From positions 15,506,816 to 15,570,815 of the forward strand of contig OZ316895.1 of NCBI GenBank assembly GCA_973895155.1: a stretch of DNA of 64,000 bases. The letters run 5' to 3'. This document shows positions 30,515 through 53,729 of this stretch, one piece after another. The notes under the pieces were generated by a model. The model had not been told where the DNA came from. It did not search any database and saw only the letters and a program-made list of their open reading frames with translations. The stretch comes from Marsupella aquatica (Eukaryota; Plantae; Marchantiophyta). The translations under genes and the position numbers were made by a program. How positions within the stretch are numbered: position 1 is the first letter of the stretch; every line of letters begins with the position of its first letter.

Positions 30515-31130
30515 TCACCGCAAAGAATCTGTAATTGCTGCAAGTGTGTCTTTGTCCAATTTGAACTTTCTGCTACCACCCTTCCGTCCTGAAGTATCAC
30601 ATGGGCTTAGCCCAAATCAAATGTGAATTACTGACTTTGCAAGACTAAAACTTGGTGGTGATTTGTCTAAATAGACATATGTGTGGCACGATCCTGGAAC
30701 TGGTTGCATCCATCTGCCCTTCAATACCAGTTCACCCTGCTGAAGTTCCTGCTCGTATCCATCCACAAATGTCTCTGTGACATCATGTAGGACCTCCTCG
30801 CATTGCAAAATGTAAAAGTCTACATCCCAACGATTTGGGCGCTCTGCTTCCACTGCATAGAAATCACCCAACTGCACCAACTCTGCCAAAGACCCAGAGT
30901 CCCCTTCCAATAGTCCTTCACCAACTCCCATTTCTTCAAGGTTTGCTTTGACATCAATAGGGAGAATCCCTTTCACCATCTCAAGCTTATACAGTCCTAC
31001 AAGATCTCAATTCTCACATTTTTGTGGTTCTTCATCAAGATAGTAAGCACAAAAACAGCATAGTTCCCTCACTTGCAACAGAGTTGAAAGTCGGTTACTA
31101 AATCCATCAAAACAATGCATTGCTCTACAT
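30515..31130 (-). pseudogene. Sola2-like transposase, C-terminal part (downstream of the CACTA-2 insertion)
   Basis: Joins 49207+ in frame as AIPGC|RAMHCF...RELCCFC; premature stops. Confidence 0.85.
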
Positions 31131-31985
31131 CACTAGAAGAATCCGAGGTGAACTGAGACCGCAATATATGACTCATTTTGGCTCATGTGACTTCATTGTG
31201 ACTCAACGTGACTTGACCCACGCTATGACCCTTGGAGTTGCAAAAGTTGAGACCAAAAAATGGAAGTCACTATTGATACTGGGCTTTGCAACTTGCTTGA
31301 TACCCATTTGTGACTGATCTGTGACTTTATTGTGGAGTCTAGCCTTGTTTCGACGTGACTGCAATATGACTTCAGCGAGTCACATCGTAAGTCACATACA
31401 TGACTTACCCGCATTCAACAACGACTAGTGTGTGACTATTTAGTGTCACAGGAGAGACCAATGGAGACCCTGGCCCGCGTCACACAACAGAACCATTTGG
31501 GACTCTATATACTCATGTTTATAACTAATAAGGTTCACATGCAAGTTATAACCATGACTAATGAACACAGAGGGACAATTCATAAGGAGAGAGAGCACTC
31601 GACATTACAATACATAGAAACCTGATGTTCTAACTTTAGAAATATAACACATTGAATACAAGAAATGAACATAGCATGAATGACATCCACATGAAACAAA
31701 GCATCATATAAGCAAATCCTACATAAAACATTCATAAGAATTAAACACAATCACAATCTTGCTAAAAAATGAAGATCATTTGAATTCCAATGGAATAGTT
31801 TACAATGTGATCAATGTAATTTAGACAAAACAGGAACTCATAATTGATGACTGTAGGATGAGATAACTGAAAGCACATGCATGATACTATGAATCTCCAA
31901 GAGGACATGATTCTTGTACTGCTTCTTGACATCTAAAATCTATATAACATGACTCACACTACAAACAAATAATGGCATGACATTG

Positions 31986-34900
31986 TTATGGATCCTCTAT
32001 GAACTTGCTTGGCCATAATACCAAAGAACCTGCAGCATCTCCAAGTGTCTTTTGAGGAGGATCATCATTTGTGTTTGGAATGGGAAGGACAGCTTTAGGT
32101 TTCACTAGTAATGTGACTAACACTACTGAATAACCTGGGGGAATCCTCTTGCCATGGAACGTTGTGGAACCAACCTGCACTCTGGCAAATCCTACTCGTG
32201 TTCCACTCTCATCAACAGCTAACAAGCCACTTTGTCCCTCAGCATTAGGTGCTTTCCCCACTTCCACCTTAGATCTTTCTGCCAGCACTGTTCTTGGAGG
32301 TTTGTATGAAACCTTTGACGTGGCTCTGCTCCCACCAGCAGACTTGCTTCGTGTGCGCATGCTTCCTCTCTTCACAGTAGTGAAGCTAGGCTCAGTAGGT
32401 TCCTCTGTTAGGACTGTCACAGTAGCAGGTTCATCACCTGGGAGTGTCATACCAACTAACTCTTTGGTTGGATTTATCTCAACAAGAGGCACACCTGTCA
32501 TTGAGAATGATACATTCTGCAAATCATTTATCTCTGCAATGGAGTCAAGATCTACATAGCATGAATCTGGCTCAATGGTATCATTGTCATGCTTGCTGAT
32601 ATCCTCATTTGCCCCAACATTGATATCATCCACTCCCTTGCCAATGTCATCCTCATCCAAACATGGTTGACTGCCCTCTGTCAAACAAGTTGCTTGTACA
32701 GATTGCAACTTTGTTGCCTCTAAATTACAGCGAGTATTTGCCAGGTTCTCATACTTCTTCTCTGTAGCACCTGTCTTATTCTCTATGGACACAACAACCA
32801 CAATATATGTTACTGAAAATAACACATTCAACAAACAATGTCAATTCAAACTATACATTTAATAATCATATCCCACACAGTTGTAAAGGCCTTACCTTCA
32901 AGCCTACATGTCGTTGGCATGCCAGAAGAGTGCATCGACTTTGCCACCTCAAGTGGTGATGGTGGAACTCCTGCAGAATTGGAATCAATTTTATCTCTCA
33001 CCGACACAACAGCTTCCATTAATGTCTTGAAGTTCACATGGAACAAGTCAGTCAATGAATTCAAACGTTCATTGATCTCTGGAAGACATGTTTCGACAGC
33101 CTTCAAATGACCACTTATCTCTGTAAGTGAAGATCCACCTCCCTACATGACACAGGGGTATAGGTTCAATCACTCCATATGAAATGTTGGGCAATATATG
33201 CACAATCAATGTTATATACAGTGTACACCTGAAATTCAACGCAGGTCATTCAATTACCAATCAGAACTCATATAACTTACATGCTTGGAGGATTCAGATG
33301 CACCCTCTTGAGCCCGGGTGTTCACAATTTCAGCCCTCAACTCTTCTTTTGAAGGGCTTTGCCCCAATTGGGCTTTCTGCACATGCATGGCAAACACAAG
33401 TTATCGATCAATATTCAGGGAACGTACACTAAAAAACAAAGTTTACATGTATGGGTTTACACTAAAAAATAGTACATAGTGTAGCATAAATTACATAGCT
33501 AGGCCATTCATTCTTACCAAACGTTTAGCTGTCGGTGCAGTGCCGGTCCTTCCTGTCAGATTAGGGTTCTGAACACTCAACCTGGCCTCGGTCATCTGTG
33601 AACTCTTCTTTTTTGAAGCATCTGTTACAAAATAAGCTACTAACCTTGCCCACACTTTATCATCACAACTGGCTGGTGGAGGCATATCTGGCTTCTCCCC
33701 ATCTTCCTTCCAAGCCTTATGCATTCTCCACCTCTCTTGCTTGATAATTTTACCTGCTGTACTCTCTAGGCAACCTATGTCCACGCCATCATCACTGCCC
33801 ACATAATTCCATTTGGCAGCAACATTTTCACATACAGTCTTCCAATCTTTTGGATGCTGTTTTTTAAAATTAATAACACTCACATCTAACCAACGCAATA
33901 CTTCAGCTTTCAAATCAGCATGCCATCGGTTCTTGCGAGGACACTCAGCATCCACCCATTGTCTCTCATTCAACTTTACGTTCCCTTTCTTTGTCACCTC
34001 CCCTCGTGCACTGCTCTCGGTAGTACTGGGCGTTGTATTGGCCACCCCTTCATTCACCCTACCTGGGGTTCTGAAGCCACCTGGGAAAATACAATGCCAT
34101 TCATGCTTGAGAACTACATATAGCAGAATGGATGACGGCAACATTCAATGCTTCACTTCAAGAAAAATTCTTCAAACATACATACCTGTAGCTCTGCCTG
34201 TAGATGCCTGTGCAGGGACTGCACTCTGAAATTGTTGCGACCCTGGACCACCTGTTAGCCTAGTACAGGGGCCGGATGATGTCACTTTCTAGGTATGTGT
34301 GTGCAAACATATGTACTGAAAACTAAGTACAAACTGTAGGAAAACAACTGAACATTCACCGACATACCTATCCCCCTTCCGTGCTGCATCTACATAGGGG
34401 CATTAGTGAATACTTGAGTCGATGGTTCGACTGTCCAACCTGCACACATACATTTTCTATCATTATACATGTGCAGAGTCCCCCCCACGTGAATGGACTC
34501 CACATATAATGAGTTCTTCCATTGCTGACAAGATCAGACATTACCTGCTCCTCTTCCAGCGTTTGTAGGTACTGAATTTTGATATCCCTGCCAATTACCT
34601 TCACCACCTTCCCAACCTTGTTCATTCCACGACCCACCACCATCCTCCCAACCTGGTTCAACCCATGTCTGTCCTTGTGGACATTGGAACTGATCATTAC
34701 TAGCATTTGCCCAATCAGGTTGGGCAGAATCTGCATGCAATGGCAGGTGGACAGAATTTCATGTTGTCTGAATCCAATACATCCCAAACAATGTCAAAAA
34801 TTGATATGCAGTCTGAAATTCAGGAGTGCCATGCCTTCACAAAGAACTGGCATATAGATATATACTCACATCCCCATGGTTGAGGTGGACGTCCATACCC

Positions 34901-35691
34901 ACGAGATTGTGGGTTTGGACCTGCTCTGCCTCTACCACGGGCATAACCTAGAGCTTGCCCCCTGCCATAGTATTGGGCACCAGCCTGGGATCTACCACTA
35001 CTACCACCTCGCCAACCTTGATCAGAGGTCAGCCCCCCCTGCTGGTATGGTGCATGCACAGGCTTCGAAGGCAAAACAGAACTGGCAGGACGCTGCATCA
35101 CATCACCAACTACAATGTCAGGAACTAAGCAAGGTACATATGTGTAGTACTGAACATATGAAACCTCTAAACAAGAGTTTTTAACTCAAAACCTTGTTGG
35201 GAAAACTACTTACATGTTTCTTTTGGGGCTGCTCTGCAATGTATTCATCTTCATAACCCCCATCCTCATCCATTTCCTCTGGAAAATACTCATCATCTGC
35301 ATCTTCTTGTCTAGTGTCTGCACCCACCTGTGCAACATCAATGTCATCTCCACATTCTGCCATTGTAGGTACGACCTTCTTGCTCAACCTGTCACTCCGA
35401 CGCACAGGCCCAGAGATAGTGCTGGTCACCCTTCTTGTGTACTCCTTTTGTTTCTTTGAAAATGCTGTGGCTCTGCGACATTCCAATATGAGAATACAGT
35501 CACAATTTCAGTGCCACATTGAACTATTCATGTCACACAAACTCAGCGGAGGGGTGTAGTTGAGAATCGTTCCCTTACAATTTAGCCACATCCTTTTCCA
35601 GATCCAGTTCTGCGATTTTGGCTTTCACGTATGCTCGTTGTTCCATAGCTTTCCTTTCATACTCACACATCTCTGTGTCACTCTGTTCCAT
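31986..35691 (-). CDS. TnpA-like multi-exon protein of CACTA-2 (exon boundaries only partly resolved)
   Basis: ORF pieces 35575-35691, 35181-35486, 34820-35101, 34534-34740, 33491-34144 (PPP..W..LV.YF...KS..AR, Transposase_24-like), 32846-33106 and 31986-32834 (FHGKRIP..LP.P..TLGDA.GS.VLWP, Tnp1-type C-terminus). Confidence 0.75.
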
Positions 35692-35847
35692 CCTACTGGA
35701 CCACAAAAACATGTCATCTATGGTCACCCCGTATAACACAATGCAACCACAATCACCAGGCATCCATCCATACATCTGTGTTGCTTCAGAATTACTTTAT
35801 TACACATCCTTCCCCTCACTAATGTCCATGCAAACAATTCACATTAC

Positions 35848-38800
35848 TCATGGCACAGGCACACTATTGACATCTGCATCTCTGAATTCGCCTCCTTCAG
35901 CAAATGCATCTACCCTTGTCACAGGAATGAAGTCCCTGCTATCATGAACTACAGGCACTTGGTCTGAACGCCGACGATCAAAGGCACTATGAGAGTGTAA
36001 ATGAAACTCAAGGTTTGATCCTTCCATCCGACGTTGCCTGGCCTGTTTATGACACACTACACGCCAACCTGGGGAGTCTTCCACATCCAGGAAGAAAGCT
36101 TGCTCCACCTGACTAGGAAACACAAATGGCTCAGACCGTTCGAGCAATTTCCCTCTGAAATTGGCCAGCAAGAAACCGTCGTTGTCTCTCTTCATGGTAG
36201 CCCTGTTACCAAGCCAATCCTGCCGCACCCATGAACCTTTCATAAGAATCACAGGACTGGACACCGCCCCATAGTCCAGAGCCCATATGTCAACTAATTC
36301 TCCCACATATCCCATCTCCATCCAGGCCCTGTCGTGATTGTGGCTCTGTTGCTCAAATACAGTGATGAGCCCGCAGTCATTCGTCACCCTGTAGGCACTG
36401 TCACCATCCTTCACTCGGAAGTGATTCCCATATGCTCTCATCCGTTTGTAAGTCTTCACTTTCAGGCTAGGGGCATTAGACAGTAGGTAAACATCTGCAT
36501 CCATGTCTGGGTGGGTCTCGTGATGCTCTCTAATTGCCACTCTGATCCACTCCATGAAACCTGGAAAAGTTGTTCCTGCAGTGGGATGGGCCGCCTTCAA
36601 TGACTCATACTCCCTGAACGAACAACCACACAGCATTAGCTTGGGTAAACATGAACAGGCTGAAGGAGAAAACCACACGAACACAACATTTAAGCTCATG
36701 AACTGGATTATAGCACATGTATGCACTCACTGTATCCAGGGTTCCATCACCACAGTGTTGTGCAATACAAAGTCATGTGCCAAGTCTCTCATAGATATGG
36801 TCAGGTTCTTTGTGGTTGCAGCCCCTTCCAGTACTTCACCTATCACCCCTTCCTCCTCATCAGAATTCCACACCCTGGTCTTCACATGCTCATATTGTGC
36901 TATGTATTCGGTCAGAAATCCCAGAGTCTCATCCTTGATGTAACCTTTAGCCATGCTTGCTTCAGGTTTGTAATATGTTCTCACGTGACCTTTGAGTAGC
37001 TTCATGTACCGTTCCAAAGGGTACAACCAACGAGCACTCACAGGCCCAAATTGGTGTAGCTCTTCCACAACATGGACAAGTAGGTGGGTCATGACATCAA
37101 AAAATGCGGGAGGAAAATAAATCTCCAGGTCACACAGCACCTGAGCGACATCTTCTGTCAGTTGTGGGAAGTGTGTTTCATCCCAAACCTTCACACAAAT
37201 ACGACGAAACACATCACTGAGTCGCATGATCACAGTACGAACAGGCTTCTGCAACAGGCCCCTTAGGCATAAAGGCAACACCTGTTGCATCAACATATGG
37301 TAGTCATGGCTTTTCATACTACCAAGCTTTCTAGTCATGATATGCTTCTTGAAAGCACTGCCATAGTTTGAAGGAACCTTCAAAGAACTCAACCTCTGCA
37401 CAAATAGTTCCCACTCTGTGTCTGTCAGAACATAGGGCGCTTGGTACTTCAAGAGCACATCAGCTCTGTGGGCATGTGGCCTCAACCAAAGATGGGGTTT
37501 CATTCCCCTCTGTTCAAGATCCAATCTCACTGAACCAGTGTCTTTCTCTCCACACAAGAATTTGAGTAGACTCTCACAAATATTCTTTTCAATGTGCATA
37601 ACATCAATGTTATGTTTGCTTGGCTCAAACTCCTGCATCATTGCAATGCAAAAGCGTCAGGAAATGCCTCAAGTTTAGTCTCTCTCTTCAAAATGAATGC
37701 ACATGCTCTGAACCAAAACATGTATCCCAATTAGCATCAACTCCAAGAGGCTTACCCTCCAGTACTTGAGCTCCAAGTCCAATATGCTCAGTCTTTTTAC
37801 ACCATATCGCTTTATTGGATCACTCACTCCATCTTCCCTGCCCCCTCGTTTGATATAGTCATCCCTCAGTGCTCCCCACTGCCTGATCTCCTCTTTGGTC
37901 ACTCGTGCCGGGGGTCCACGTTGCTCAATCTCATTGCCAAAGTGTGCAATCAGTGCCTGTCTTTCTCTGTAAGGGTGATCTGCCTTCAGAAAATGACGAT
38001 GGCCCATGTATATCACTTTCTGCAGGGCTCTGGAGTACTCAGTGGTGACATTGCGCCCACAGATAGTACAAGCACAATATCCTTTTGTTGTTTGGCCTGA
38101 TATCATCCCATGGGCTGGGTAGTCAGCTATAGTCAGAATGACAATGGCTCTAAGGATGAATGGGTTTAACCTCCCAAGCCTCTGTAGGACATCATATGTG
38201 AGAACTCCTTCCTCCCAAAGCTTTCTCAATTCCTCCACTAGGGGAGCCAGAAACACATCTATGTTGGCAGATACAGCACTGTCTGGCCCTGGTATCAGTA
38301 GGACCATCAGAACAAAACATCGCTTTGTAGTCATCCAAGGAGGAAGGTTATAATTCAAAATAGTTACAGGCCAGCACGAAAATTTGTTGTTCTTGTCTCC
38401 AAATGGGTTTACCCCATCCAATGACAGCCCAAGTCTGACATTCCTCGGCTCAGCAGCAAATTCGGGATACATCTCATCTATGAGTTTCCATTGCCTTGAA
38501 TCTGCAGCATGTCGTTGTAGCCCATCATCACTTTTCTTGTCAGTTGCCCAAGTCATCATCTCCGAGATGGCACGGCTTCTGAACATCCGCTGAAGTCTGG
38601 GAATGAGTGGAAAATGACGAAGTACCTTGGCGGGAACCATAGACTTTCCTGAGTTCCGATACCTGTGCTTCCCACACTTAGGGCATGTCAACGATTCTTT
38701 ATACTCCTTTCTGAAAAGAACATGCCCATCAGGACAGGCATCGATCGAATCATAGTTCAATCCAAGATTAGATGTGCATCTTTTTGCCTCGTACATGTTC

Positions 38801-39579
38801 TTGGGCAAAATATTACCATCTGGTAGCACAGTTGTTCGCAAGAATGCCAACAACTCAGAAACCAAAATGTTGGGGACATTGTGGTTGCCGCAAATGTTCA
38901 GGAACATGATGACAAATCCCAGTTTAGAACATTTGCTACCGGGGTACAAAGACTTCATGCCTTCCTGTATTTGCAGGGGAGAGCCAAACATCCCATCATG
39001 CCCAGGGGTTTCCTGCCCTATCTCAAACTCATCAAGAGGCTCTTCGACAGGGGGCACACTTGCATCTGCAGCCGTATCCTCTTCATTGTCCAGCCCATCA
39101 TGAAATGCATCCAAGTCTTGGAAGATGTCTCTCACCATCTCTTCCACATGAATTCCTTCGTCACGTGGTGCTGCCTGAGCACCATCCCGTTGGAGAGCTG
39201 ACAACCCACAGAGACCAGCTACAACATTTTCAAATGCACCAGGCAGAACCTCACTTGCCCGTCTTGCAGCATTGGCAGCATCAAATTCTAACCTCCACTC
39301 CTCATCGGAAGAATATTCCTCTGCAGGATCATTCCAAACTCGATGTCGTGGATCTCTTCCATGAACCGCGATATGCCGCCAAACCTCATTCAGACCCCTG
39401 GTACGGGATCCTTGGCAGATTGCACAAGGACATCTCATCCTACTGGCTCCTGAAAGTCTGGTTCGTAACCTTTCACGCTGCCAAAGCTTATTATCATGGC
39501 GTGATATCCTTGTGGGATGATGCAAAGGCAGTGCCTGTGCCCTGGGCTGGGTCTGGGGAGGGTGGTGACCAGGGTGCAT
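35848..39579 (-). CDS. TnpD transposase of CACTA-2, apparently intact (~1163 aa)
   Basis: Exons 39579-37756, 37632-36731 and 36613-35848 with canonical, phase-compatible GT-AG introns. Motifs CPCAIC, LGLSLDGVNPF, YNLPPW, ADYPA, DVMHIEKN, LYPLERYM, EPFVFPSQVEQ. Confidence 0.93.
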
Positions 39580-40012
39580 TGTAACAGGCTGGGAGCTCTG
39601 CAGTCATGGACAGCAGTGAACAAGGATGCCTAATGGTGGTATTTGTGTTCCATATATCCCTGATTGTATCTACCAAAAGAGTTAACATAACGTGTACTAA
39701 ATTCTCACAAACCCTAAACCACCCCAAAAGAAAAAAACAGGTTCGCAAGTAGTGTACCTATTGTCAAGTGAATGACACAAAATTCCTAAATGTTGGAGGG
39801 TGTCACCACCTCCTCCGCTATCCTCAAATGTACCGCCTCTGCATGTACGTTTACAGTGACACCCCCAGGCAGCAGGAAACAACAATCCGCCAACAGTAAA
39901 ATAAGCCCAACTGCCACCAACCATAACAAGGTACATTAGTTCAAAGATCACATTTATTTCAATGATCTGATTTATACAAAAAAACTTGTGTCCAAACTGA
40001 TGCTACTACTCC

Positions 40013-40885
40013 TCACTCTGATTCAGAATCGCTAATGACCCATTCCTCACTTGTTGTCTCATAGTCCTCTCTGTAAGGATCCTGACCCTTCCGTGGCCAG
40101 GCCTCAAAAAGATCATAGTCCATTGGGTTTTGACGCTTCCCAACTGCTACTGATTCCACAAGCCAAGCATATGAAACCACAAACACATTATGGGACATGA
40201 CATAAAAGCGAATGTCTCCCTTCCCAAACTTGCGGCAGGCTTTGGGATATGACTTAGTAATGACATGAGTGGTGTCCTCTGTTATATTCTCCTCCACTGT
40301 CCCACCTAGGTCAAGCACTGTGGACTTGTACACTTTGCACTTAACCTCTCCAATTCCCGCCTCCACAAATACCATGCTCAGCCCTTTCAGAATGGGGGTT
40401 GGTTGCTTCGTCTCCTCAGCCAACATACACTTCAGCCTTGTAGAGCTCTGTCCTTTGTTGAGTACAGGTCCATATTGGAGATCAGCAAGCCGTGCCTTTG
40501 CTTCCCAGACTTCTTGTTCAGCCCAAGTTGATGCAGAAGCTTCTTCATCCTCCCACAACTCATATTGCTCAGTATCCTGTACAATCTTATGTGCTATGGA
40601 ATCTGTGATCCAAGAGGCCTCAACTACTTTTAGGCCTTGCTTAGTAATTGCAGAATTCATGTAGGACCATGACCACTTCTTTATCACTGATAGCCATGTC
40701 CCTGCAACAACATGTGTAGTCTCTGGAGTGATGTCCTGAACTACAGTGCCATGGAGCTCAGAGAATCGTTTCTGTACAGTTGGCCAATGCACTTTGGTCA
40801 ACCCATGCTGGCCATGGACCAAAATCGCTCTGACCCTTGTAAACACTGCTGGGTGGTCACACTTTCTACGTTTACCAGGCTCCAT
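40013..40885 (-). CDS. Tandem BRCT-domain protein (DNA polymerase lambda BRCT-like), ~290 aa
   Basis: Two repeats of GTV....TTHV....VV..W...S; the second reads ILKGLSMVFVEAG...LGGTVEE...THV...KFGK...YAWLVESV..G. Confidence 0.8.
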   Translation of the reverse strand: MEPGKRRKCDHPAVFTRVRAILVHGQHGLTKVHWPTVQKRFSELHGTVVQDITPETTHVVAGTWLSVIKKWSWSYMNSAITKQGLKVVEASWITDSIAHKIVQDTEQYELWEDEEASASTWAEQEVWEAKARLADLQYGPVLNKGQSSTRLKCMLAEETKQPTPILKGLSMVFVEAGIGEVKCKVYKSTVLDLGGTVEENITEDTTHVITKSYPKACRKFGKGDIRFYVMSHNVFVVSYAWLVESVAVGKRQNPMDYDLFEAWPRKGQDPYREDYETTSEEWVISDSESE

Positions 40886-41477
40886 GTACACACACTCTAC
40901 GTGATGACAGTGAATTTTGGAAGAATGGGTTCACCTGACAATGCAAGGACAACAAAATTCCTGCTTTTTGAGTTGATCTGGCCCACTGGTGCTCAGGTCC
41001 GATTTTGATAGGTACAAGGGATATGTGAACAATACGTACTAGGCACCTGCACGGATGCAGGACATTGTTTGAATATATACTACAAAATCCATATCCGTGG
41101 TGAAATGAAGTGCAACCAACTTGTCATGGCACATACATATTTTGTTGTAAAGGAGGATACATTCAATGACAAACTTATAGGGCAATTTGATTAATTGCAT
41201 GCCTGATAATTTATACGCTTACAACTTAGAAGTCCTGTTTTAATTTAGCAGTCTGATGAAAGTGTTTATGAAAATGACCACTCAGCCTAAATACTTCCAA
41301 GAAGGCTTGTAAGGATAAGTTTGTATAGGCATGTACCCAGCCACTGACGCCAGAGCACAAGATAAGTGCTGCCTATATAAACTCGCCTACCCAACTCCTT
41401 TTCAAAATTGGAATCTCTGCAATCTCAAAAAATAGTACATCCACATCAGGTGCACTGTGCATGTACAATGTTCAGCT

Positions 41478-42158
41478 TCACAGCCAAGATATGTGATCTC
41501 TCACAGGAGTGCGCGAGGTAGGATCAATGGCATGGCGATGACAATAAAATATCCATCGATCAACACCATGTGCAGAGTGATCATAGATTTCTCTGTCACA
41601 AGCATAACCCTCTGCTTGATGATCTTTCAGGCAATGATAGTGCCACATAGTGGGACACCTAGCATAGTGGACTATGTCAGTCCAGTAGTCATCATCATGC
41701 TCACCACATGCCTTGCACCTATGAAGTGGGCAAGCTGTGGCATGAGCAGGCAAACACTCAAAACAGAAAAATCTCACACAAAAATGGTCTGGACATTTCC
41801 TAACATTTGCTGCAGCATCAACAGAGCCCTCATAGGACCCCAACTTCCCACACTGTGCACACTTAGCCTGCTTCTCCAAACAATCAGTGCACATCCAGTC
41901 TCCCTGGTGTGTTGACGGGAGGCCCACCCCTGGACAGTTGTTTTTTGCAGCAAGGTCAGACTCCGGGTTGAGGTGGAAATGCCTCATGCAAGGGCCCTCA
42001 CAAATGACCAGGCCCCCACCATCGTCACAAATGGCACAACAATGAGCTGCCTTCTGGAAAATCTGACTTGCAGAGAAGTTAGTAGCATCTGCCCCAAGTA
42101 CACCTGTGTTTCTCACCTCTGTCACACGCTTTTTGGCTTGAATTTTAGGCCGTGCCAT
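41478..42158 (-). CDS. Stand-alone EDM2-like composite PHD finger protein, 226 aa
   Basis: CAICDDGG.L..CEGPC.RHFH...C..C.KLGS...CPLH.C..C...RCP...H..CL...IFYC..H.ID....TPVRDH matches the EDM2/NSD-type triple-PHD pattern as I recall it. Confidence 0.85.
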   Translation of the reverse strand: MARPKIQAKKRVTEVRNTGVLGADATNFSASQIFQKAAHCCAICDDGGGLVICEGPCMRHFHLNPESDLAAKNNCPGVGLPSTHQGDWMCTDCLEKQAKCAQCGKLGSYEGSVDAAANVRKCPDHFCVRFFCFECLPAHATACPLHRCKACGEHDDDYWTDIVHYARCPTMWHYHCLKDHQAEGYACDREIYDHSAHGVDRWIFYCHRHAIDPTSRTPVRDHISWL

Positions 42159-42856
42159 GCCTGCGCATGAGATAGACTCTACAATTTAGCAGACTGCACA
42201 GAAAGTAAAATATATTTAGCATTTAAGGTACAAAGGCATTTGCTACTGCAATGAATTGGAATGGCCACACAAGGATGCAGAGCACACATACTTTTGGTAT
42301 GTTGAGCCCACACACAAAACTGATCCCCTAATACAATTTCTCCACCAACACCTCAATTTTAATTGTGGCTATGATTCACCAAAGGAGATCTGCAACAACA
42401 TTTCATGCATTTGAATCACATACAATAGTCGTGACATGTAAAACAGGCATTCTTCGAAGAGGATTGGTATGAAGCAGTGTCATAAGGGTTGAAATTTATA
42501 CATCCTAAATAGGTTATGATAGTGGCTGAGACAAATAAGTGAGGCATAAATCATTTTGCATATTATCACATGGCCCATTAATTCATTCAACGTTGCAATG
42601 TTCACCAGGTTAAAGCAGTCATGAAAGCAGTCTTTCAATAGAGACTTTTATGCGAGTTTGCTAGCCTCTTAAATTAGGATATTTTGCTTAGTGCAGGCAT
42701 AATAGGATATAAGTTATGTACTGTTGACCCTAAACCCTGGACCCAAAATTGCTCATACATCAAAATTTTAAGTAAATATCCTCTGTGTTGAAGTCAGAGT
42801 GTTAAGCTATAGGTCAATGGTATCTGGTCTGTGCATGCGGTGTGACAAGTGGTCCT

Positions 42857-43306
42857 CTAGAGCATGTGATCCAAACATGTGTAGACACCAAAGTCACCGG
42901 TGGTGGGGTCTGGGAGGGCAGGACAAGTGACATCACCAGGCACACTGCAGGATGGCGAGTGGTTCCAGATGATACATTGTGCTCTGTGCAAAAATCGGCA
43001 TCCAAGAGAACGGTCATCCAATTCTGGGCCAGAAGCCCTACAGGCAGGACAGTCATATTGGCAACTGTGTACACACCCTTGGCACCTAATTTGTGGCGGG
43101 TCATGTACAAGAGACACAAATACCAAGGATGTCGGGAAGGGTACTGAAGCAGGTAGAGGCCGGCTGTAGTTGTTCCTGGAAACAACAGGGTACTCAAAGT
43201 ACCATGCAGACTGGGCTGGAAGGATCCCAAGTCTGACATACTCAAGGCGCAACATCTCTGCCTTGCGTGCAAGTCGCACATGTTCAGCGTTGCGGGTCCT
43301 CACCAT
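42857..43306 (-). CDS. Cys/His-rich orphan protein, 149 aa
   Basis: ATG-initiated open ORF collinear with the other cargo ORFs; CQGC..SC..DCPAC, C..LH..C, HSPSC, TC..H. Confidence 0.5.
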   Translation of the reverse strand: MVRTRNAEHVRLARKAEMLRLEYVRLGILPAQSAWYFEYPVVSRNNYSRPLPASVPFPTSLVFVSLVHDPPQIRCQGCVHSCQYDCPACRASGPELDDRSLGCRFLHRAQCIIWNHSPSCSVPGDVTCPALPDPTTGDFGVYTCLDHML

Positions 43307-44314
43307 AAGTGTTGCTTTCGTTGTGATGTCCTCTGTTCACGTCCTTTGATGAGCAAGGTGAGCAGGAGGTCGACTTGCCTCGCCAACAGCAACCACCTAA
43401 ACTAATCAGTTCCCACTCATTGTCTTGGTTCCAACTACAGGTCATAGTATACACATAGCATGAAACATGCATAGTACATATTTGATTCTGAGTTTATGAG
43501 TTTCCTAAGACAAAGAGCTTGGTGATAAACCCATATTCTCGACGGACATGTATATCAATCATATTAAACTCCTGTTTTTTCATCCAGAAAGACCGAAAGT
43601 CTCACCTTGCAGGTTGCAGCAGAGAGAAAATTCACTGGTTGTCGTGTTGTGCAAGTGAACCTCCACTGATGCCCCGGTGTAGCCCCTCAGATGCAGGTGA
43701 CACTTACCAACTCCCAAGTTGCCTGGTCTAACAGAAAATGCTTATATCTTCAGAACTTTATAGAGCAAGTACATGATCACATACTTCTGGATCTATTCAT
43801 ATTTGGAACTCTTGCCAACTACAACTCCCATTATGCACAAGCTCACATCAACAGAGAAAGATACAGAATGCATACTTACTATGGCTCTAAGCACCTTCAC
43901 TACCTTGTTGAACCCAGTCCTGAAGTCTTTTCAGCGTGTTTGTTGTGTTGTCTCCTTTGGCACCCAACACCTTAGTCCTTGATGTAACAGAATGCGATTT
44001 TACAAGTTAGATGCTTTGGAACCTTCTATGGTCTTAGCTGAATTGATGTCATCGTAAGTGGTGAAAGACAAGGAAGACGAAAGCTGGTTGAAGAGCTGTG
44101 GACAACACACTAGCATGAAGTGCTTCAACCAATCCACTGCCAAACGGAACTCTTGCACAGTCACATTCTTTTAGTAAACAAAAACTCAGTCAAACTTCAG
44201 AATCAAAGTACAGACTCTGAAGGACCAAAGGAGGATGTTGTGAGTTTCTCTGTTGTTTAATGTGTTACCCTTCTAGTTTCAAAGTTAGCAAATGCTGAAT
44301 AATGTGTCTACCAG

Positions 44315-44657
44315 ATCTTCGAAAAGAAGCCCACCACAATTAAGAACTTCGGTATCTGGGTCCACGTATCAGAGTCATACAGGTTATCACAACATGTACA
44401 AGGAATATTGTGATACCACAAGAAACGGAGCTGCAGAGCAGATGTATGATGAGATGGCTTCTTGTCATAGAGTTCGGTTCCCTTGCATCCAGATCATGAA
44501 GACTACGACAGTCCCTGTCTCTCTGTGCAAGCGAGAAAGTACCAAGCAGTTCCATGATTCAAAGATCAAGTTCCCCTTGACGTACTGCAAGATTCAACCT
44601 CCATTGCGAAAGCTAAAGAAGACTTACAAGGCCACCAAGCCCAACACAATTGTTTGA
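44315..44657 (+). pseudogene. RPL18a: Captured last exon of 60S ribosomal protein L18a (eL20)
   Basis: CCAG|[15 protein letters not shown] (frameshift) [14 protein letters not shown]...[10 protein letters not shown]...[17 protein letters not shown]...KTYKATKPN. Confidence 0.93.
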
Positions 44658-47600
44658 GTAGTGCGGGTGCAGGTTCCCAATTTTGAGACAATTTGGCTCA
44701 TTTTATGTCCCGAGGGAATCCTGGAGTTTATGTATTGAGTTTCTAGGTGAAGATGCTTAATATAAGGAAATTCAATTATCACTTCGTTCCCAACTTCTAT
44801 TAATTGAAAATACACAAGCTGGAAGCAAGAAGACAAGCCACAATCTAGCATCTTAGCCAAACACAATCGTCCCGACAAAGCAAAACTCAGCTGGACAGAA
44901 GTCACTCGGATCCACAAAAAATTGAAGATTCACCTCCAAGCCGGAGGCTGATCACTTCAGTACAACAACTTCTAGACGGAACAAACTTTGCTCAGCCCCA
45001 CAGAAACACAAATGTTAAGGCTCCAAGTCAGAGCTCACAAACAAAAACTCAGATAAATAACATTCAAAATCTGTCCAGGTTTGTGCAAAGTGTACATATT
45101 CATTCTTCTGGAATGAACACGCAATGCATACATCACCTAGACACAATCATTATAAATCATTGGGCGATTGGGGACCACTAAGCAGGTGTGTTCCTATTTC
45201 GAGGCTACAGGAAAGGATAGAGTGACACCAAACTCAAGAGTACACCAAAAGAAAAACAGCAAGAACCAAAGTCAATCATGTGTGGATAAACTGCACATGG
45301 GAAGTTCCCCTGAAGAAGCATCAGTTGCTAACATTGTCACCCGAACCACACCTAGTTTATGACCTCAATGTCTTCAACCTCAATATCCAATCCTCAGCCC
45401 CCTGGTGCTTCCGTGTTTGTTCTGAAAATTTCTGTGATGAAATAATTATTCAATACATTCAATAGGAGTTCAGACAATCTGAAGAGGACTTTGGACTTGA
45501 ATGGGGGACAGCGTGGCCATATAGTTATCCTTGTGGCCTTCAGCTACGTGTCTCACGCTGAATTTCACTTTCCAGTTTCGAGAGTTGTGAAGGTCTAGTT
45601 TTAGTAACTTCCTCCTGACTCGACTTGGGAGCATTCTCTGTATTTGCTAGCTTGTAGTTAGCTTTGACTCCTTTCAGCTTAGTTGACGACCCTCTTGAGA
45701 TATTAACAATTAATATCAAAGGCATTGAAACAAAGCGGGTGGCAGTTTCAGTATCTCAGGCAATGCAAAATTAATCCATACTTAATCAGCCCTGGCCACA
45801 CATTCCTTCAAAGCCCCTCATACTAGCAAGCAGGTCTGGCCTGTGAATCTTGTAGTGCTTAACGATACAAAGCCTTCCCAAGTACCAATTCAAAAGTAGC
45901 AGAAATAGATCGAAAGCTAGTTCCGATGATAGCTCCCAAAAGCTTTCCTCAGCCCGATTCCTATGCACATCAGAGGAGCTCAAACCATTTAGAAATGAGA
46001 TCACAGATTACTCTTGACAATCTCAAAAATGCCACAACCTAAGCACTGACAGCTCCGTCCCCCCATTCTAATTTCTCCGACAAGTTTGCCTTAAAGCACA
46101 TCCACTCGCAGTTCAAGCAGATTCAGAATCATCATAGACAATAGAGTGTTCTACCATAGCCCACGGTAGGTCCACGGCCATCGTAACAAACGCTCCACCC
46201 CCGGGGCTTATTAGTATTGCTCACTTTTAAGAAGGGCAGTTTTCGCAAAAGCAGTCTAATTGCCTAGACTGCACTAGAAAAGTTGGAGGCAATATCACAG
46301 CGGAGCATTCTGCGTCTAAGGGAGAGCGACGCCGTTCAGGAGATAGATGCGCGAGAGAGTGAAGATGGTGGGGAGCGGAAGACGGGTTGGGACTGGACCC
46401 TTGGTGCCGGTGGGTAATATGTGGGGTTTCAATGAACAATGGGCCAGTTTGAGGAGGATTAAGAAGCGCGCACCCCACGTTCTTGTGTGGTGGTTGGGTG
46501 GGGTTTTGTTTGATAGAAGAAGAAATCACCATTCTCTTATGGAAGAAAGAAAATCACAGGAAACAGTGGGCGGGAGAACAAGGCATGTAATAGAGAACAA
46601 CGAGGCATGTAATAGAGTACTTGCGGTTACTCTAACGGTGCACGAACACTCACCTTTGTCTTCCGCTTTGTCTGCTGTGGCCAACAAATCCCAGAGCGCT
46701 GCCGAGCTTGGTGGTTGCTTGATGGTTGAAAGTGCGTAGCTCACGTCCCTACCTCAATGTCCAACTCAATGTGGGATGCAGCAGCTTCTCTTGGTCGCAT
46801 CTCCTCTTCGTCGCATCTCCTCTTGGTTGCATCTCCTCCTTGTCGCAGCTCCTCTTGGGGTTCACAGCTAGCGCGCAGCAGCGCTCGATGGTTGACAATG
46901 CGCAGCTGAGCTAGGAGAAGAACTGAATGACTGTGGCTGCTCTTCTCTGCAGTCCAAGCACCCGGCTGGCAGAATGCTACGACACCTTAAAGAAGCGCAC
47001 TTTCAGCTGCATGGCCGGGACTAGTAGAAACCGTTGACGGTGAAGGGCATTCTCAGTTTGGACCTCCTCTCTCCAACCCCTTCTAACCCGCACCTCCAAA
47101 GTTGATTCGGGAGTTGATTAGCAATAACGTCGCTCCTATGCCAAAGGCACCAAGAACCAAGCCAAAAGAAAGGGTTTAGCAAAGGGAGAGCGATGTAGTG
47201 TGCACTGATCAATGACTCAAAGTTGACGTCGAACCCTCCATTGCACTAGCTATTGGCGGTTGCCACACAGAGAGCAGCCGTATGTAGCAAACTGTAATGC
47301 AGATACTCCCGTCAAAGGTCGATGCGTCACACTCAGCTTTAGAGGAAGGATAAACGATTGAGCAGCATTGCATTGTGCAAAAATGTTGGAGAAGCACATT
47401 GCTTCCAGGCCCGAGCTCACCTCCTTCCCCTTTCACCACTTCGCAGCTCCTCCAAGAGACATTCACTCAAGGGCACATCATGCAGTTGCTTGCCCTCCTC
47501 AGAAGCTCAACACCACAGCCACCAAAGTTGTCAGCTCCCACTGCAACTGAACAGGTCACTACCAAAAGCCCGCTCCCACCGCAGCTGAACAAGTGAGCGA

Positions 47601-49206
47601 CACAAGAGTGTAGGACCTCCGCCAAGCCCAGGGCAGCAGCTCAATGAAACTCAATTTGCAACTCGTCTCACTCTCGCTCTTGCTGCAAAGAAAAAAAGTG
47701 CAGGTCAAACTCCTTTGTGGCCTCAGTCCCCACCGCTTTCCCCAAGCTATGGACAACTACTAGCAACTTGCGCTCACAACATGACATCCAGGTCTTTAGC
47801 CAACTGCACACTGGAAACCGAGAGAAGTGAGCGCAGTCACGCAAGGCCAAAAAAGACCAAAGTTGAGCCAAAGCAAAACTTTACTAATGTATTTACAGTC
47901 AAGCATGAGGGCAATCAGGTAAGCAGAAGACCACGCATTCCCGCAAAGAGTTGTAGGTTCTCGTCACTTCCTCGCCTCTGTATAGAAGGTCGATCGTTGT
48001 ATCTCGGGTACCCAATGATAGTGGAGATGAATGCAAATAGGCCTCACCAATCGCCAGTCATCCGCGATAAACCTCCCGACAACCTTTGTAAACTCTGGAC
48101 CCAGCCTCAACCTCACTCAGCACAGTAGCAAAACCTAGCAATGTCACCGCTGCAATGTTTTGTGCTTGCAATAAGCAGCCTCCTAAACCCACAGCTCCTT
48201 CCACTGCCAACAAAATGCCAATGACTCAACCCTCATTCCAACCCCGAGCTCCCAATAGTAGTGAGAATCCAAGCCTTTGACTGCAAGCGCACAGCGGAGA
48301 CAAGACACTCAAAGAAGCTCGATAGGATTCACTCAGGAAACCTAGGGCCCAAGCCTGACGATGTTCGGCTCTTCCTTCTCGCTCGCCAAATGCCGACACT
48401 CTGTGCTCGCGAAGGCACTCGTCGTTTCTCCCAAGGGTTTTGGCACAAGGGGTTTGGGAAAAACAGTCAATGGGCAAAGGCATTACCATGTAACACGTGG
48501 AAACTTGTGGCATGGTCCATTAGGTGAAGGGGTTCATGAAGCCAATTGAGGGCAACACGCATTACAAGGAAGAGTAGGTAGAAGTGGTCTTGCGGCAAAG
48601 GCATTGCATTGTACCCTTAACAAAAAGAGTCCCTAATATTGGGCTGTTCAATATTCCTAGATGAAGGGAGTTGCAACCATTTGAAATTGGCCAAGGGGTA
48701 TATTTGGAGACAGAATGCTGCCAAATGATGTTAGTGGGTTCAGTGTGTGTCTTTCTCTTTGTATGATGGAGTAACCAGTGGCCTGCATCATGGCGCGCGA
48801 CTTGCAATTGCACCGACCTCCGGTACATATACCTATAATCATTTTGTCAATCATACATATAAAGTATATATGTATGGGTTGGATTTGGGATGTGGGTCGG
48901 CATTATTATTTAATAAGAGCCAAAGTTATATTGTTCTTATATATGTGCAACCATGGTGATAAATATGGCAGAAAGCGCTATTATAATTGTGCTGAGTCAC
49001 TTATAAAACTTCAAAATAATTGCCTACACTAAGTTACAATTGCAACACTCCAAATAGTTATAGATATGCCTCTCCAAAAATTCACCAAAACTTAGTTGAG
49101 AAGGTGTAACAAAGATGACACCAATAACCTTGGAGTCACTAATTTCCAAAGGTCTCAAGTAAGTCATGTAAGGGAGGGTCTCAGATAGGGCCGGTTTCTT
49201 CTAGTG

Positions 49207-52033
49207 CATCCTGGGATTGCATCACAGTCCCATTTCTTGTGCCGATTCACAGCTGTAGCACCTATTTCCCAAAACAATCGCCTCACAAGCAAAACATCAC
49301 CATACTCTCTCTCAATACCAATGGCAAACTTCTCCTTGCAAAATGCAACTACATCATGAGCATTTTCCAAGCGAAAGCCATGTGTCCCCTTCAATTGCTC
49401 TCTCTGTATCCCGCTCTTGATGTGGCCTCCAAGGGCATCCTATCCATGCAGAAAAAGTCCATTCAATGTCACACAAGCATACAACTAGACTCCAAAGAAT
49501 AATGTTCTTGTATAACAGTAAAGAAGCTCATATGAAACTAAATAATGAGAACAACACAGTGAATTCAAATATTGGAGGTAGAGTTCCACACTTACAGCTA
49601 CACCCTTTCCATGTCCTGAAGCATGGAAAAACCATTTCATCCGTGCACCAAATCTCTTGTAATACCTTGAGACGTAGTAGAAAGGTCAACAAGCCTTAAA
49701 TTGTGAGGCAGCTCCATCGGACCAAACCCAATGCTGAGTGAATTCAATTCCCTCTTGCTTCATCCAATGATAATGAGCATCCATGCAATGCTGCACAAAC
49801 AAGGTGTTGTGAGTATTATCATCACTGATATAGAAATGATAGTCGGCGATGATATCTCTGTCACCAGCTTCACTCTGTGCCATACTCACTGTCCATCCCA
49901 TTGCAGCCTCCATAGATTGGTGCACATCTTCTCGATGTCTATAGGTCACATGGATCAACAAAGTAATCTGTTTGTTGTCCCAATGTTGCGATTGAATCTC
50001 ATTTTGCGTCTTGAAAGTGTAATTTTCAGAGAAGTCAATTGAAGACACTATGGTTCCTCTTGGGAACGTCTTCAAAAACAATCTAAACTGGTCACTTTGC
50101 CAGCGAGCTCTAAAATCATGAACAACACATGACTTCATTCTAGCTTCGACCACGTTCCTGAAATCACTTACAGACGTAGTCTTATACACCATCCTCAAGC
50201 GTTTAGACTTTTTTTGTGAACTCTCATCACTTCCCTGCTTCTTTGCTTTCTTCATTTTGTAAGTTGTCATCTAACTCCTGATATTCAAAACTCTGCCAAC
50301 TAATAGTTAGTTGTTGTGTGGAATCCAACTCCCATGGACACCAGTCCAGATTCAGCATTCCACAATCTACACAAACTCCCATAATACAGTCCTTCTTGTG
50401 CCATACCTGCCCCTCGGTTTTCTTACACAGGGCACCTTCCATCCAACCTCGAACAGAGGTAATGTGTGTCCTTGAAGCTACACAAGAAACACCTAATGGA
50501 ATGGCCACTGATTTACAAGTACAACACTGACAACTACACTCAAAGGGGTGATAAAACTTCCTGAATTTGTTTAGTGCGTCTTTCAGGAGGTCCATTTCAA
50601 CGTGCTGCTTGCAGCAGCATACATTTCGATCCTTCATGGTTCGAATGTAAAACGGTTTCAGATAACTGAAGGACCGCAGGCCTATAGAAACATCATTGTT
50701 CTCAGCCTTGCACCAATCTTGGAACTTGAAGAAAAATTCAACCTGTAAATAGACATCAACAGGGTGTTAATAGATTACCCAAATTCAGGCTCTCAAATTT
50801 GTATCGTTGGCTACAACTGAAGACGGGACTAAAGAATGCAGAAAATTTTAAGAACTCTCAAAGAAATTGAAGTAGCCAATGTGAGGATATCCTACCTCTG
50901 TATCCTCGAGCCAATGTACTTTATGTTCCTCATGTTGATTTGGTCCAAGTCGCTTTCTAGCTATCTCTTTCTTGCCTGGTGAGATTCTAGTGTATGTGCT
51001 CCAAAATAGTTCAACAATCTTGCGCACCTCTGCACTAATCTTGTCACTCCTGGTTTTCCTTTCCCCCATTGGGTATTTTATACATTGGTTCTCATCTATC
51101 TGCTTCCGCATGTTTGATGCTTTTTGAATGTTGTGTCTCTTGATACCAAAAGCCTTAGCTAAAGAGGACTGATATCGCTTGCCAACCGTGGACTGTCCGA
51201 CCATAGCTACCAACACTGAATGCTTTACAGCCAAGTGATCTTTCTTTTTACCCCACTTCACAATTTGCAAGGTCTGCCTAAGGTCAGTTATAGCAGCTCC
51301 TACAGATGCATCTAACTTAGGGGTCCCAAGAGCTGCAGGATGATATTCTCTCAATGAAGAATGCAACCAAAATCGCTCTAGGACTACCTTCCTTGCGGAT
51401 AAGTTGAAATCTCTCATTTTTTTGAATAAGACTGAAGTTACCTCGGAGACCACTGAATCAACCGCTCGTCTCGTTCTATTGGGCGTTTCCTCAGCAAGAT
51501 GACTAGACAATGAAACTTAAACTTCTCATCCTCCGAAGTCTCCAATATGCAGCTCATTTTCTAGCAGCATCTTTCTCCCTGAATTCTCTGGCCAAATGAG
51601 GGTCCTCTTGCATGCTTTGTGGACAGTGAGCTCCTTCACCTAATCGCACACGCAGTACTTCGAGGGCGGCTTGCTTTTGCCCTATCCTAGAGCGCAAACA
51701 TGACAATGTTTCTTTGCCTTCAGCACAGTCATTCTTGATGTTGTGCAGCTTCAACGCAGCTTGAGCGGTTGCCTCTCCATGTAAGCGCAGCGCCTCATTC
51801 CTAGCAGCAGTTAATAATACCTCACTTTGCTGCTGAGCATGAAAAATCAGGCCCGTACTATTGCCGTCTTCCGGTTGAATGCCTCTATTCAATTGCTCAG
51901 TGTTGACCTCTTGGCATTGCACGATAGGCTTGTCATACCATGACTTTTGCCTTCAAAAATTGCGCCATTCTCTTTTGTCTTTCTCTTCTTGGGATTCATC
52001 TTGGCGCCCCGCTTGGCGTCGCACTGGTGGCAT
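49207..52033 (-). pseudogene. Sola2-like transposase, N-terminal and catalytic part
   Basis: RKTRSDKI, Cys-rich CCCKQH...CIMGVCVDCG, SIDFSENY.FKTQNEIQSQHW, YISDD, WSDGAASQFK, ASGHGKG/DALGGHIK; several stops, frameshifts and introns. Confidence 0.88.
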
Positions 52034-52784
52034 CTCGCTAAAATTGATGGCAGCTCCTACAACACGTTGAGCCTTTGAACGTAAGTTCAAAACAATATTT
52101 CATAAGTTAAAGAGGCCATGGTCCAAGTTAAATGAGGCTCTAGATGGCAAAAATTCATGTGGGAACACCCGCACTCAAGCAAACAAAAAATGGAGTCTAA
52201 CAACATTGAGATGTCGCGCGGCTTACCCTTTACCAACGAGGTGAACACCCTACATTGCACAAGACGGTCGCCAAGCTTTTTGCTAGTTCTATGGATGATC
52301 TTTAGAATTTATCGAATCCGCTTGAGGCCAGAAGCTCTCTGGTAAAACTCCTGAAGAAAACCCGCAAAACATTACCGCAGATAGTCGACAGCCCTTCAAT
52401 TCCCATGGCTCCCTGCCTCTTCCGTAGAGTCCTAGCTGAGCCTAGCTAGGACTCCTTAGTCTACGCGTAATTAAGTATTTTGAAATTCAAATCGCTACTT
52501 AAGTCCTGTTTCATTGGTATTCATTACCACTTGGACTTCCTTTTAAGTCCTTTTGTCCTTAACCATTGAATCATTAATGGACGCTACTCCTAATCAAACC
52601 TCCTAGGACGCTTCCAAATGGACTGCTGGAGGTGAGGGGAAGATCCCACCTTCCATTCTCAATAAAGCAATCCAGGCCATTAGGTGTAACACCTTGTCCA
52701 TCTCTTGAACAAAGGGAAGGACTGGAATCCTTTTGGTGGAGATTTTGAATATCCTTTTTGCCCCCCTCAAGCTTGCATTTGACC

Positions 52785-53729
52785 AGGAGTATTCATTTCT
52801 TGAGGAGGGAGCAAGTACATAATTTGCATCGCATTGGAAGCGACATCCAAGGACATGTGTTCATATGTCATATCTTGGATTGCCCATTGATTCCTCGAAA
52901 TGCAACACTAGTTGCAAAACGATTCAAGGATGGAGACCGGCACAAGAGACAAACAAATGCCTTACAAGAAGTGCTAATGGGAGGCTTGAATCACAAAGGA
53001 ATCATTGGGACCCTGGCAATGACTATCGAAGATCCACCAAAACTTATCTATGATCATTACAATGGAGGTGACTTGGGAAGCTTCATAGATAAGTGTGGGA
53101 AATGGAGTAAGAGCAAGGGGAAGACACAATCCACTTTGGAAGTTGATGTGACATTGATATCCGAAAAAAAACTCTTTTTGAAATATCGTTTGGGGATTGC
53201 TATGGCTTTATTGCAGACATTGCAGTATTTGCATGCACACGACCGTTTCCATTGTAATCTTTGTTTTTGGAACATCCTTCTTCACTTTGATCACGAGGAT
53301 GATTTGGCAATCAGAGTTTATGTAGGAATATGTGATTTTGGGTTGTCTAAACACAAGTTACAATGCATATTACCACAAAATCTAATGTGGCCCACTCCTG
53401 CAGAGAAAGCTGTTGCGTATCAAAAACAATATCCACAATTGGCGCCTAAGCTAGTTCGTTCCGATCCAACAGAGTACAGTCAAGCAACTGACATATATGC
53501 TTTGGGCAATGTCTTTGAGACATTACTTACAAAAAATTGGGATGGAATGACCCTAATGACACGTTATGGAGAGCATGCCCCTAAATTGGAGATTATGATA
53601 CGTGACATGATGGCCACTGATGTCACCAAAAGAATGTATTGTGTTCATTGGAGTTTGAGAATGATGAGGACATTCCAGGATTGTAGATTAGTTCAACACA
53701 ATAGTCATTATCTAAGAGATTATGGATGA
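52785..53729 (+). pseudogene. Protein kinase domain (3' half of the split gene)
   Basis: VAKRF, E of helix C, GGDL, YLHAHDRFHCNL..NILL, CDFGLSK, APK, DIYALG; catalytic D appears as N and APE as APK. Confidence 0.88.

Follow-up and report, generated by a model that had tools for sequence, protein, structure and literature searches.

The window analysed here is a 64,000-nucleotide stretch of the liverwort Marsupella aquatica (assembly GCA_973895155.1, contig OZ316895.1, positions 15,506,816 to 15,570,815 of the forward strand). It contains a CACTA (En/Spm-type) transposable element of 18,076 bp (31131-49206, genes on the minus strand), and within this element lies an open reading frame (ORF) of 290 codons plus stop (40013-40885, minus strand) whose product consists of two BRCT domains. 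That CACTA elements can carry additional or captured genes is already known; a conserved double BRCT gene in one of them appears to be new, and full-text literature searches returned, within the collection searched, no report of a BRCT gene in CACTA elements. At the level of sequence both repeats, and the second (BRCT2) more than the first (BRCT1), resemble the N-terminal BRCT domain of animal DNA polymerase lambda (Pol lambda), and the specific link to Pol lambda is partly supported. We tentatively propose, at somewhat less than an even chance, that the protein may be a docking module for the host end-joining complex, acting as competitor or adaptor at the breaks made by the transposon.

The BRCT gene starts with an ATG at 40885-40883 and terminates with a TGA at 40015-40013, and the stop-to-stop frame extends just 15 codons 5' of this ATG. 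Two Pfam families each match the ORF in two stretches (PF00533, E 1.7e-12 and 47.8 bits, cut-off 21.3; PF16589, E 8.9e-11 and 42.4 bits, cut-off 27.3). The Pfam scan of the ORF returned BRCT families only, with no enzyme domain and no PolX catalytic core, the NCBIfam scan gave no match, and the ESM Atlas yielded generic BRCT clusters only (scores ≤0.88).

An AlphaFold2 model of the full protein, computed from 21 family sequences (mean pLDDT 73.5, pTM 0.43), places BRCT folds at residues 19-108 and 170-257, with the strand-helix order present twice. BRCT1 (40562-40831, minus strand) is a block of pLDDT 64-88 that coincides with a Pfam stretch and whose repeat profile matches solved BRCT domains. 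It is followed by a linker of approximately 60 residues (about 109-169) containing a helix (residues 114-137; 40475-40546, minus strand) and then a low-confidence stretch (residues 137-161, pLDDT <50). BRCT2 (40115-40378, minus strand), which carries the motif AGIGEVKCKVYKSTVLDLGG, is delimited by Pfam and AlphaFold2 and is Pol lambda-like by hhalign and BLASTP; modelled by itself it reaches a pLDDT of 88.1 and gives 95 Foldseek matches at E ≤0.001, all 36 of the rows listed being BRCT domains. The protein ends in an acidic Ser/Thr-rich tail (residues 270-290, ...DYETTSEEWVISDSESE; 40016-40078, minus strand), of which residues 278-290 are modelled with low confidence. Comparable acidic Ser/Thr tails terminate P0001, P0002, P0004 and P0005 in the family alignment, and a tail of this sort is also present in P0013, the row of which is out of place in the alignment. 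The window protein's tail presumably resembles the CK2-type sites through which XRCC1 and XRCC4 recruit FHA-domain repair factors.

The closest relatives, found by word-based search, are the full-length proteins P0001 (294 residues, 58-60% identity, E 2.4e-103) and P0002 (295 residues, 53% identity, E 6.9e-94), which share a common start and a common end with the window ORF and align with it over 123 invariant columns. An exhaustive search of 1.84 billion representatives gave 25 proteins at E ≤1e-3, none with more than 326 residues and some of them single-repeat pieces; more distant two-BRCT relatives (264-313 residues) are 23-26% identical in the family alignment and 27-31% identical over the matched stretches. 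When neutral evolution of the frame was simulated to 59%, 53% or 30% amino acid identity, 0 of 3000 frames were open each time, with a mean of 7-8 stops per simulated frame at 59% and 53% identity. The simulation ran without insertions and deletions (indels), an omission that favours survival of the frame. Since no simulated frame stays open at the divergence of these relatives, we conclude that selection preserved the frame at some stage of its evolution.

Scans of metagenome, viral and prokaryote genome contigs found no relatives there. Longer fused forms were likewise not found among proteins of 512-2000 residues with BRCT2 as query or of 458-2000 residues with P0019 as query, a word-based search that is weak evidence on this point. 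Among early-diverging streptophytes, small BRCT proteins of a Pol lambda-like character may be common, and the BRCT proteins described here may mark a streptophyte family of small two-BRCT proteins that has as yet no name; of its relatives, two have named records, one from a liverwort and one from a streptophyte alga.

The element that carries the gene is bounded on both sides. Its ends both read CACTAGAAGAA, as CACTA-type terminal inverted repeats, with 30-nt arms that are 77% complementary (CACTAGAAGAATCC... at 31131-31160 on the plus strand, and CACTAGAAGAAACC... at 49177-49206, read on the minus strand), and a target-site duplication, CAT, can be read from the sequence on the left (31128-31130) and on the right (49207-49209). 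In each of two sequencing runs (X1 and X3) one contig joins 31127 directly to 49207, skipping 18,079 bases, which is the element plus one CAT. The flank-joining contig may stem from an empty allele or from a further copy of the flank (flank depth is high in X1 and X3), and it fixes the element borders either way. An alternative end motif, CACTACAA, proved to be a wrong guess.

The next ORF on the same strand begins 433 bp downstream of the BRCT ORF, at 39579, and belongs to a TnpD-type transposase gene (35848-39579, minus strand) that runs in one frame over three ORF pieces and matches Transposase_21 (PF02992, E 1.1e-69), DUF4218 (E 4.4e-28) and DUF4216 (E 5.3e-05). The nearest Atlas clusters of TnpD are Transposase_21 proteins, with Streptophyta as the commonest phylum. 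One of the two frame breaks (36727-36729) lies in a donor-like GTGAGT site (GTGAGT at 36730), and the other (37675-37677) precedes an acceptor-like site ending in TGCAG (before 37632); because the in-frame stops are placed at such sites and the pieces share one frame, we infer that the stops are intronic. Damage had been considered as an explanation for the two stops and was dropped, the splice-like sites making introns more likely. The sequence-only reading had described an open frame of about 290 residues with two BRCT repeats and no catalytic domain, encoded by a transposon and situated directly upstream of tnpD, and all of this is borne out by the Pfam matches, the position of TnpD and the borders of the element.

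Maize En/Spm has a layout of two genes, the transposase TnpD and TnpA. The window element shares with maize En/Spm and with other plant CACTA elements its CACTA ends, the 3-bp duplication and a TnpD with Transposase_21, DUF4218 and DUF4216 domains, and it has a downstream, weakly Transposase_24-like ORF and a cluster of possible subterminal motifs. It differs from them in two further ORFs, the PHD finger ORF and the double BRCT ORF, between the 5' end and TnpD. The position of the BRCT ORF, inside the element, close upstream of TnpD and on the same strand, would also suit a third element protein that, by binding TnpD or TnpA, controls how the transposition complex is put together and that has nothing to do with host repair, and the N- and C-termini are conserved in the family as for a stand-alone protein. 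No CACTA subunit of this sort appears in the literature found by the full-text searches, however, and the window's other CACTA element is without a BRCT ORF; of the explanations weighed here, a partner of the transposase seems to us the least probable, with only a slim chance of being right.

Gene-fragment capture by CACTA elements (Pack-CACTA, transduplication) is known from flowering plants, and the window element carries a clear instance of such cargo. Part of a gene for ribosomal protein L18a (eL20), at 44289-44654 on the plus strand (PF01775 E 1.6e-17, profile positions 6-57 of 59), lies antisense to the element genes and is, judged by its sequence, a captured piece of a host gene, indicating that the family picks up host DNA; run depth suggests that many element copies carry it. 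The BRCT gene might likewise be a passenger, a complete intronless copy of a host two-BRCT gene, acquired by capture of DNA or of a retrocopy, that gives no help to transposition and whose relatives are host genes. We regard this as unlikely and still as a serious contender, and were it only a passenger, the finding would still document that a CACTA element outside the flowering plants had taken up a whole gene. Apart from the L18a fragment, two lines of evidence favour a passenger and weigh against maintenance of the gene by the element. The records of P0019 (streptophyte alga) and P0026 (liverwort) are ordinary gene models annotated just as small BRCT or hypothetical proteins, and the relatives could be host genes. 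The other line comes from variation among close copies in the sequencing runs.

On the stretch of the BRCT ORF we found 625 contigs from four runs of four organisms (30, 551, 36 and 8), copies being counted at a likeness of at least 85% over a 993-bp stretch, 40 of whose 58 variant sites are listed. Within the ORF, 37 of the listed sites vary, 11 of them synonymous, 26 non-synonymous and none a stop. This is near neutral (22-27% synonymous expected, P = 0.29 for at least 11), and the lack of stop variants among close copies is not significant (P = 0.16). On the side of constraint, four residues (R17, T120, C153 and V248) are private to the window copy; in their place the remaining copies carry G, A, S and A, which agree with P0001 at 4 of the 4 sites and with P0002 at 2 of the 4. 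Two low-depth deletion joints fall inside the BRCT ORF in run X1. Contigs of run X3 skip 11,149 bases within the element (31718 to 42868), with several smaller skips as well, and these skips probably reflect family members that have lost internal sequence and are non-autonomous.

Other features of the copies and relatives argue against a passenger. The summed depth over the BRCT ORF is similar to that of TnpD in the four runs, making the ORF a stable part of the family and no one-off. Indels with a share of at least 10% number three, all in the 3' flank within 40 bp past the stop, and none falls in the 873-bp ORF. The relatives look multi-copy: P0002, P0028 and P0029 are distinct, slightly different sequences, P0027 occurs on 6 contigs, and P0019 and P0033, which share at least 90% identity, are paralogues from a single scaffold of the streptophyte alga. 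The BRCT frame is without introns, whereas the neighbouring TnpD has intron-like breaks. Pack-CACTA cargo is an incomplete host-gene copy whose parent can be traced and which usually decays; the BRCT ORF is complete, its ends are conserved and its frame is open at 41-47% divergence. Neutral decay among copies is one half of what the sequence-only reading had named as speaking against it, and close copies do vary near neutrally, with the frame open in the diverged relatives. We infer that inserted copies drift like dead transposon copies while the lineage that produces new copies, which may be the transposon or a host gene, keeps the protein.

The sets used for comparison by hhalign were all picked as query hits and therefore represent the best-matching sample of each family, the Pol lambda set consisting of four animal sequences. 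With this sampling, BRCT2 matches the animal Pol lambda set at E 5.1e-17, the pair P0019 and P0026 at 4.7e-15 and a BRCA1-like pair at 1.1e-10; the corresponding values for BRCT1 are 3.8e-13, 4.4e-15 and 5e-8. Ten of the 25 hits lie outside the family, and seven of these group as Pol lambda type (P0016, P0019, P0021, P0023, P0024, P0025 and P0026), interlinked around P0025 in an all-against-all BLASTP. Among them P0021, P0023, P0024 and P0025 are Pol lambda, and P0016, P0019 and P0026 join by BLASTP; of the remainder, P0018 and P0022 are BRCA1-like and P0020 is a protein with several BRCT domains. Against the solved human Pol lambda BRCT, P0025 reaches E 2e-15, and the profile of the seven-hit set matches Pol lambda at E 2e-21, with TopBP1 next best at 3.6e-9. 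A member of the P0023 cluster, P0034, is an animal protein of 557 residues named 'DNA polymerase lambda-like' in one source, with HHH_8, DNA_pol_lambd_f, palm and thumb domains, and BRCT2 is 29% identical to the BRCT of this full-length protein over 106 residues (BLASTP, E 1e-11). The top Foldseek match of the BRCT2-only model is the Pol mu BRCT (5.1e-6). BRCT2 shares with the N-terminal BRCTs of PolX enzymes (Pol lambda, Pol mu and TdT) this significant match to a full-length Pol lambda, the Pol mu domain as top structural match, an unconserved phosphate pocket, and a hydrophobic strand followed by GIG, a basic residue and then GG (AGIGEVKCKVYKSTVLDLGG). It differs from them in that the ORF has no polymerase domain, has two repeats joined by the long linker and is borne by a transposon, in that only three of five Ku-contact positions are conservatively kept in the window copy, and in that other BRCT families score equally or slightly better against solved structures.

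The last of these differences is one of several results that weigh against a specific tie to Pol lambda. Searched against solved structures, the BRCT2 profile ranks Rtt107 (3.8e-8) and BRCA1 (4e-8) above Pol lambda (7.9e-7), and the BRCT1 profile ranks Rtt107, Rad4, PARP4 and REV1 well above Pol lambda (0.046). A single-sequence search of solved structures gave no PolX at E up to 1, the best match being BRCA1 at 0.008. The Foldseek E-values of many BRCT families fall within approximately 50-fold of the best, so that the families are not separable by Foldseek. In a maximum-likelihood tree of 35 BRCT domains, built without P0004 and P0010 (partial) and without P0012 and P0027-P0031 (near-duplicates), the repeat-2 group of the window is left in one open fork with the clade of animal Pol lambda and with the BRCA1-like rows, and a Pol lambda origin is neither backed nor rejected. 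P0019 and P0026 fall inside the BRCT family in this tree, as small BRCT proteins that provide no evidence for a plant Pol lambda, and no full-length plant Pol lambda was found at E 1e-3, where all 25 hits have at most 326 residues.

The same tree unites the repeat-1 sequences in one group (94/88) whose neighbour is the pair P0019 and P0026 (90/72), within a grade of most repeat-2 sequences (93/91). Aligned with each other by hhalign, repeat 1 and repeat 2 match at E 1.2e-18 with 22% identity, about as well as each of them matches BRCTs of the Pol lambda type. This is consistent with an ancient internal duplication; an internal duplication had been suggested by the sequence-only reading. That reading had also likened repeat 2 to the BRCT of plant Pol lambda. 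What holds is the likeness to animal Pol lambda seen with P0034, and a plant Pol lambda origin is unsupported. As for whether the repeats would cluster with another BRCT family, which it had offered as a check, both score better with the Pol lambda set than with the BRCA1-like control, while Rtt107 and BRCA1 lead the structure searches and the tree leaves the fork open.

A study of Pol lambda describes docking of its BRCT domain onto the Ku70/80 bridge, with R57 and L60 most important, and reports that with a catalytically dead Pol lambda whose BRCT is intact, gap filling and survival after irradiation drop lower than in the knock-out, an effect reversed by R57E (PMC12056208). We compared the repeats at the human Ku-contact positions R57, L60, F61, R96 and S116 named in that study (PMC12056208). 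At the equivalents of R57, L60 and F61, BRCT2 has K, V and Y, so that three of the five positions are conservatively kept in the window copy, and BRCT1 has H, T and V. Two points speak against docking at this site: BRCT2 has G and V at the positions of R96 and S116, and the residues equivalent to R57 and L60 differ between family members (T and V in P0002, for instance).

Tandem BRCTs of the BRCA1/MDC1/53BP1 type have a short, packed linker, and the phosphate-binding residues of BRCA1 are S1655, G1656 and K1702. The window protein resembles this type in having two folds per chain and in its best single-sequence match among solved structures, which is BRCA1. It is unlike the type in its long linker with a low-confidence stretch, in a whole-model TM-score to tandem BRCT structures of approximately 0.27, in hhalign values 5 to 7 orders weaker than those of the Pol lambda set, and in its pocket. 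Across the family the pocket Gly is preceded by A, K, E, E, T or K in BRCT2 and, in BRCT1, by H, P, S or P, so that Ser/Thr-Gly is unconserved in both repeats, and a Lys aligns with BRCA1 K1702 in BRCT2 only. Because the Ser/Thr-Gly pocket is unconserved and the repeats are not modelled as a packed tandem, the protein would dock independently of phosphate, as PolX BRCTs do. Another tandem is that of DNA ligase IV, likewise with two BRCTs and a long, partly helical linker, and it gives the top whole-model Foldseek match (9cq3 chain f, E 5.5e-11). With a TM-score of 0.27 and a model pTM of 0.43 this match does not establish the domain arrangement, and the sequence match is weak (E 0.047), pairing BRCT1 of the ORF with BRCT2 of ligase IV.

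Cut-and-paste transposons rely on host break repair, both for sealing of the donor site and for filling of the short gaps beside the new insertion. To our knowledge, eukaryotic elements with a repair-interface protein of their own are hardly known. The double BRCT protein would serve its element as a phosphate-independent docking module for host end joining, through Ku and possibly XRCC4-ligase IV, and it would occupy the site on Ku that is used by PolX BRCT domains. Binding to Ku would then alter the repair of donor-site breaks or of the 3-bp integration gaps, and the BRCT gene would be maintained by selection acting within the lineage of the element, not by selection on a host gene. A more specific form of this proposal, which we consider distinctly improbable, casts the protein as an element-encoded decoy of the Pol lambda docking domain that, at the empty donor site, takes up the place of PolX on Ku and stops gap-filling end joining, with the outcome that repair from the sister chromatid restores the element and yields a net gain in copies. 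If true, such a Ku-site decoy would help to explain the very high copy number of the element family. The gene offers a concrete protein with which to ask whether a transposon steers end joining versus homologous repair.

A different role, in chromatin rather than in repair, is suggested by the ORF upstream. This ORF of 226 residues (41478-42158, minus strand) encodes three NSD-like PHD-type zinc fingers and lies on the strand of the BRCT ORF, 592 bp upstream of it; its product matches PF23011 (E 4.2e-05), PF23004 and PF22908, all under the curated cut-offs, and weakly matches the solved PHD fingers of AIRE and NSD2. PHD fingers that read histone tails, with the BRCT protein as a scaffold, could form a module that steers integration or counters silencing, and the profile matches of both repeats in the PDB include the chromatin-linked scaffolds Rtt107 and TopBP1/Rad4. 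Several results count against such a module: every PHD match lies under its Pfam cut-off, Pfam found no SET domain anywhere in the element, and the phosphate pocket of chromatin-reading tandem BRCTs is unconserved. In addition, the summed depth of the PHD ORF in run X3 is approximately 3 times that of neighbouring parts including the BRCT region, and the two need not always travel together. On balance a chromatin module appears rather unlikely to us, a little more so than a passenger gene.

Splicing of the PHD ORF onto the BRCT ORF was also considered. Whichever of the three phases is taken, the sole acceptor-like site before the ATG (CAG at 40937-40935) yields a stop or an incorrect frame, and because every phase fails and the family proteins start at the same Met, a PHD-BRCT fusion was rejected. 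At the other end of the BRCT gene, an AATAAA hexamer (39953-39958, minus strand) lies 55-60 nt past the stop and is a possible polyadenylation signal, a lone hexamer being weak evidence.

Downstream of TnpD, a TnpA-like ORF of 217 residues (33491-34144, minus strand) matches Transposase_24 (PF03004) at E 1.5e-04 with 22.4 bits, under the cut-off of 28.7. Close to the left end of the element, a cluster of seven GTGACTY motifs (31187-31395) holds 7 of the 21 window matches in 209 bp, with 2 copies at the other element end (48994-49139); the window-wide count is not above chance. These clusters may be subterminal repeats bound by the TnpA-like protein. An Rfam scan of the whole window found nothing.

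Elsewhere in the window, a second CACTA-type transposase gene (23515-27451, plus strand; element about 24.2-27.5 kb) is of a distant family, is broken into several ORF pieces and is approximately 40% identical to TnpD over the best-matching part. Copia-type retrotransposon genes for gag, integrase and reverse transcriptase (RVT_2 E 2e-69) occupy 1229-5137 on the minus strand. Outside the element on its other side, a protein-kinase ORF (52758-53729, plus strand) and a RING-H2 finger ORF (54918-55487, plus strand) may be host genes, and ORFs with DUF659 and DUF7869 (E 1.9e-46) at 57802-58533 (minus strand) and 62842-63999 (plus strand) may belong to further mobile elements.

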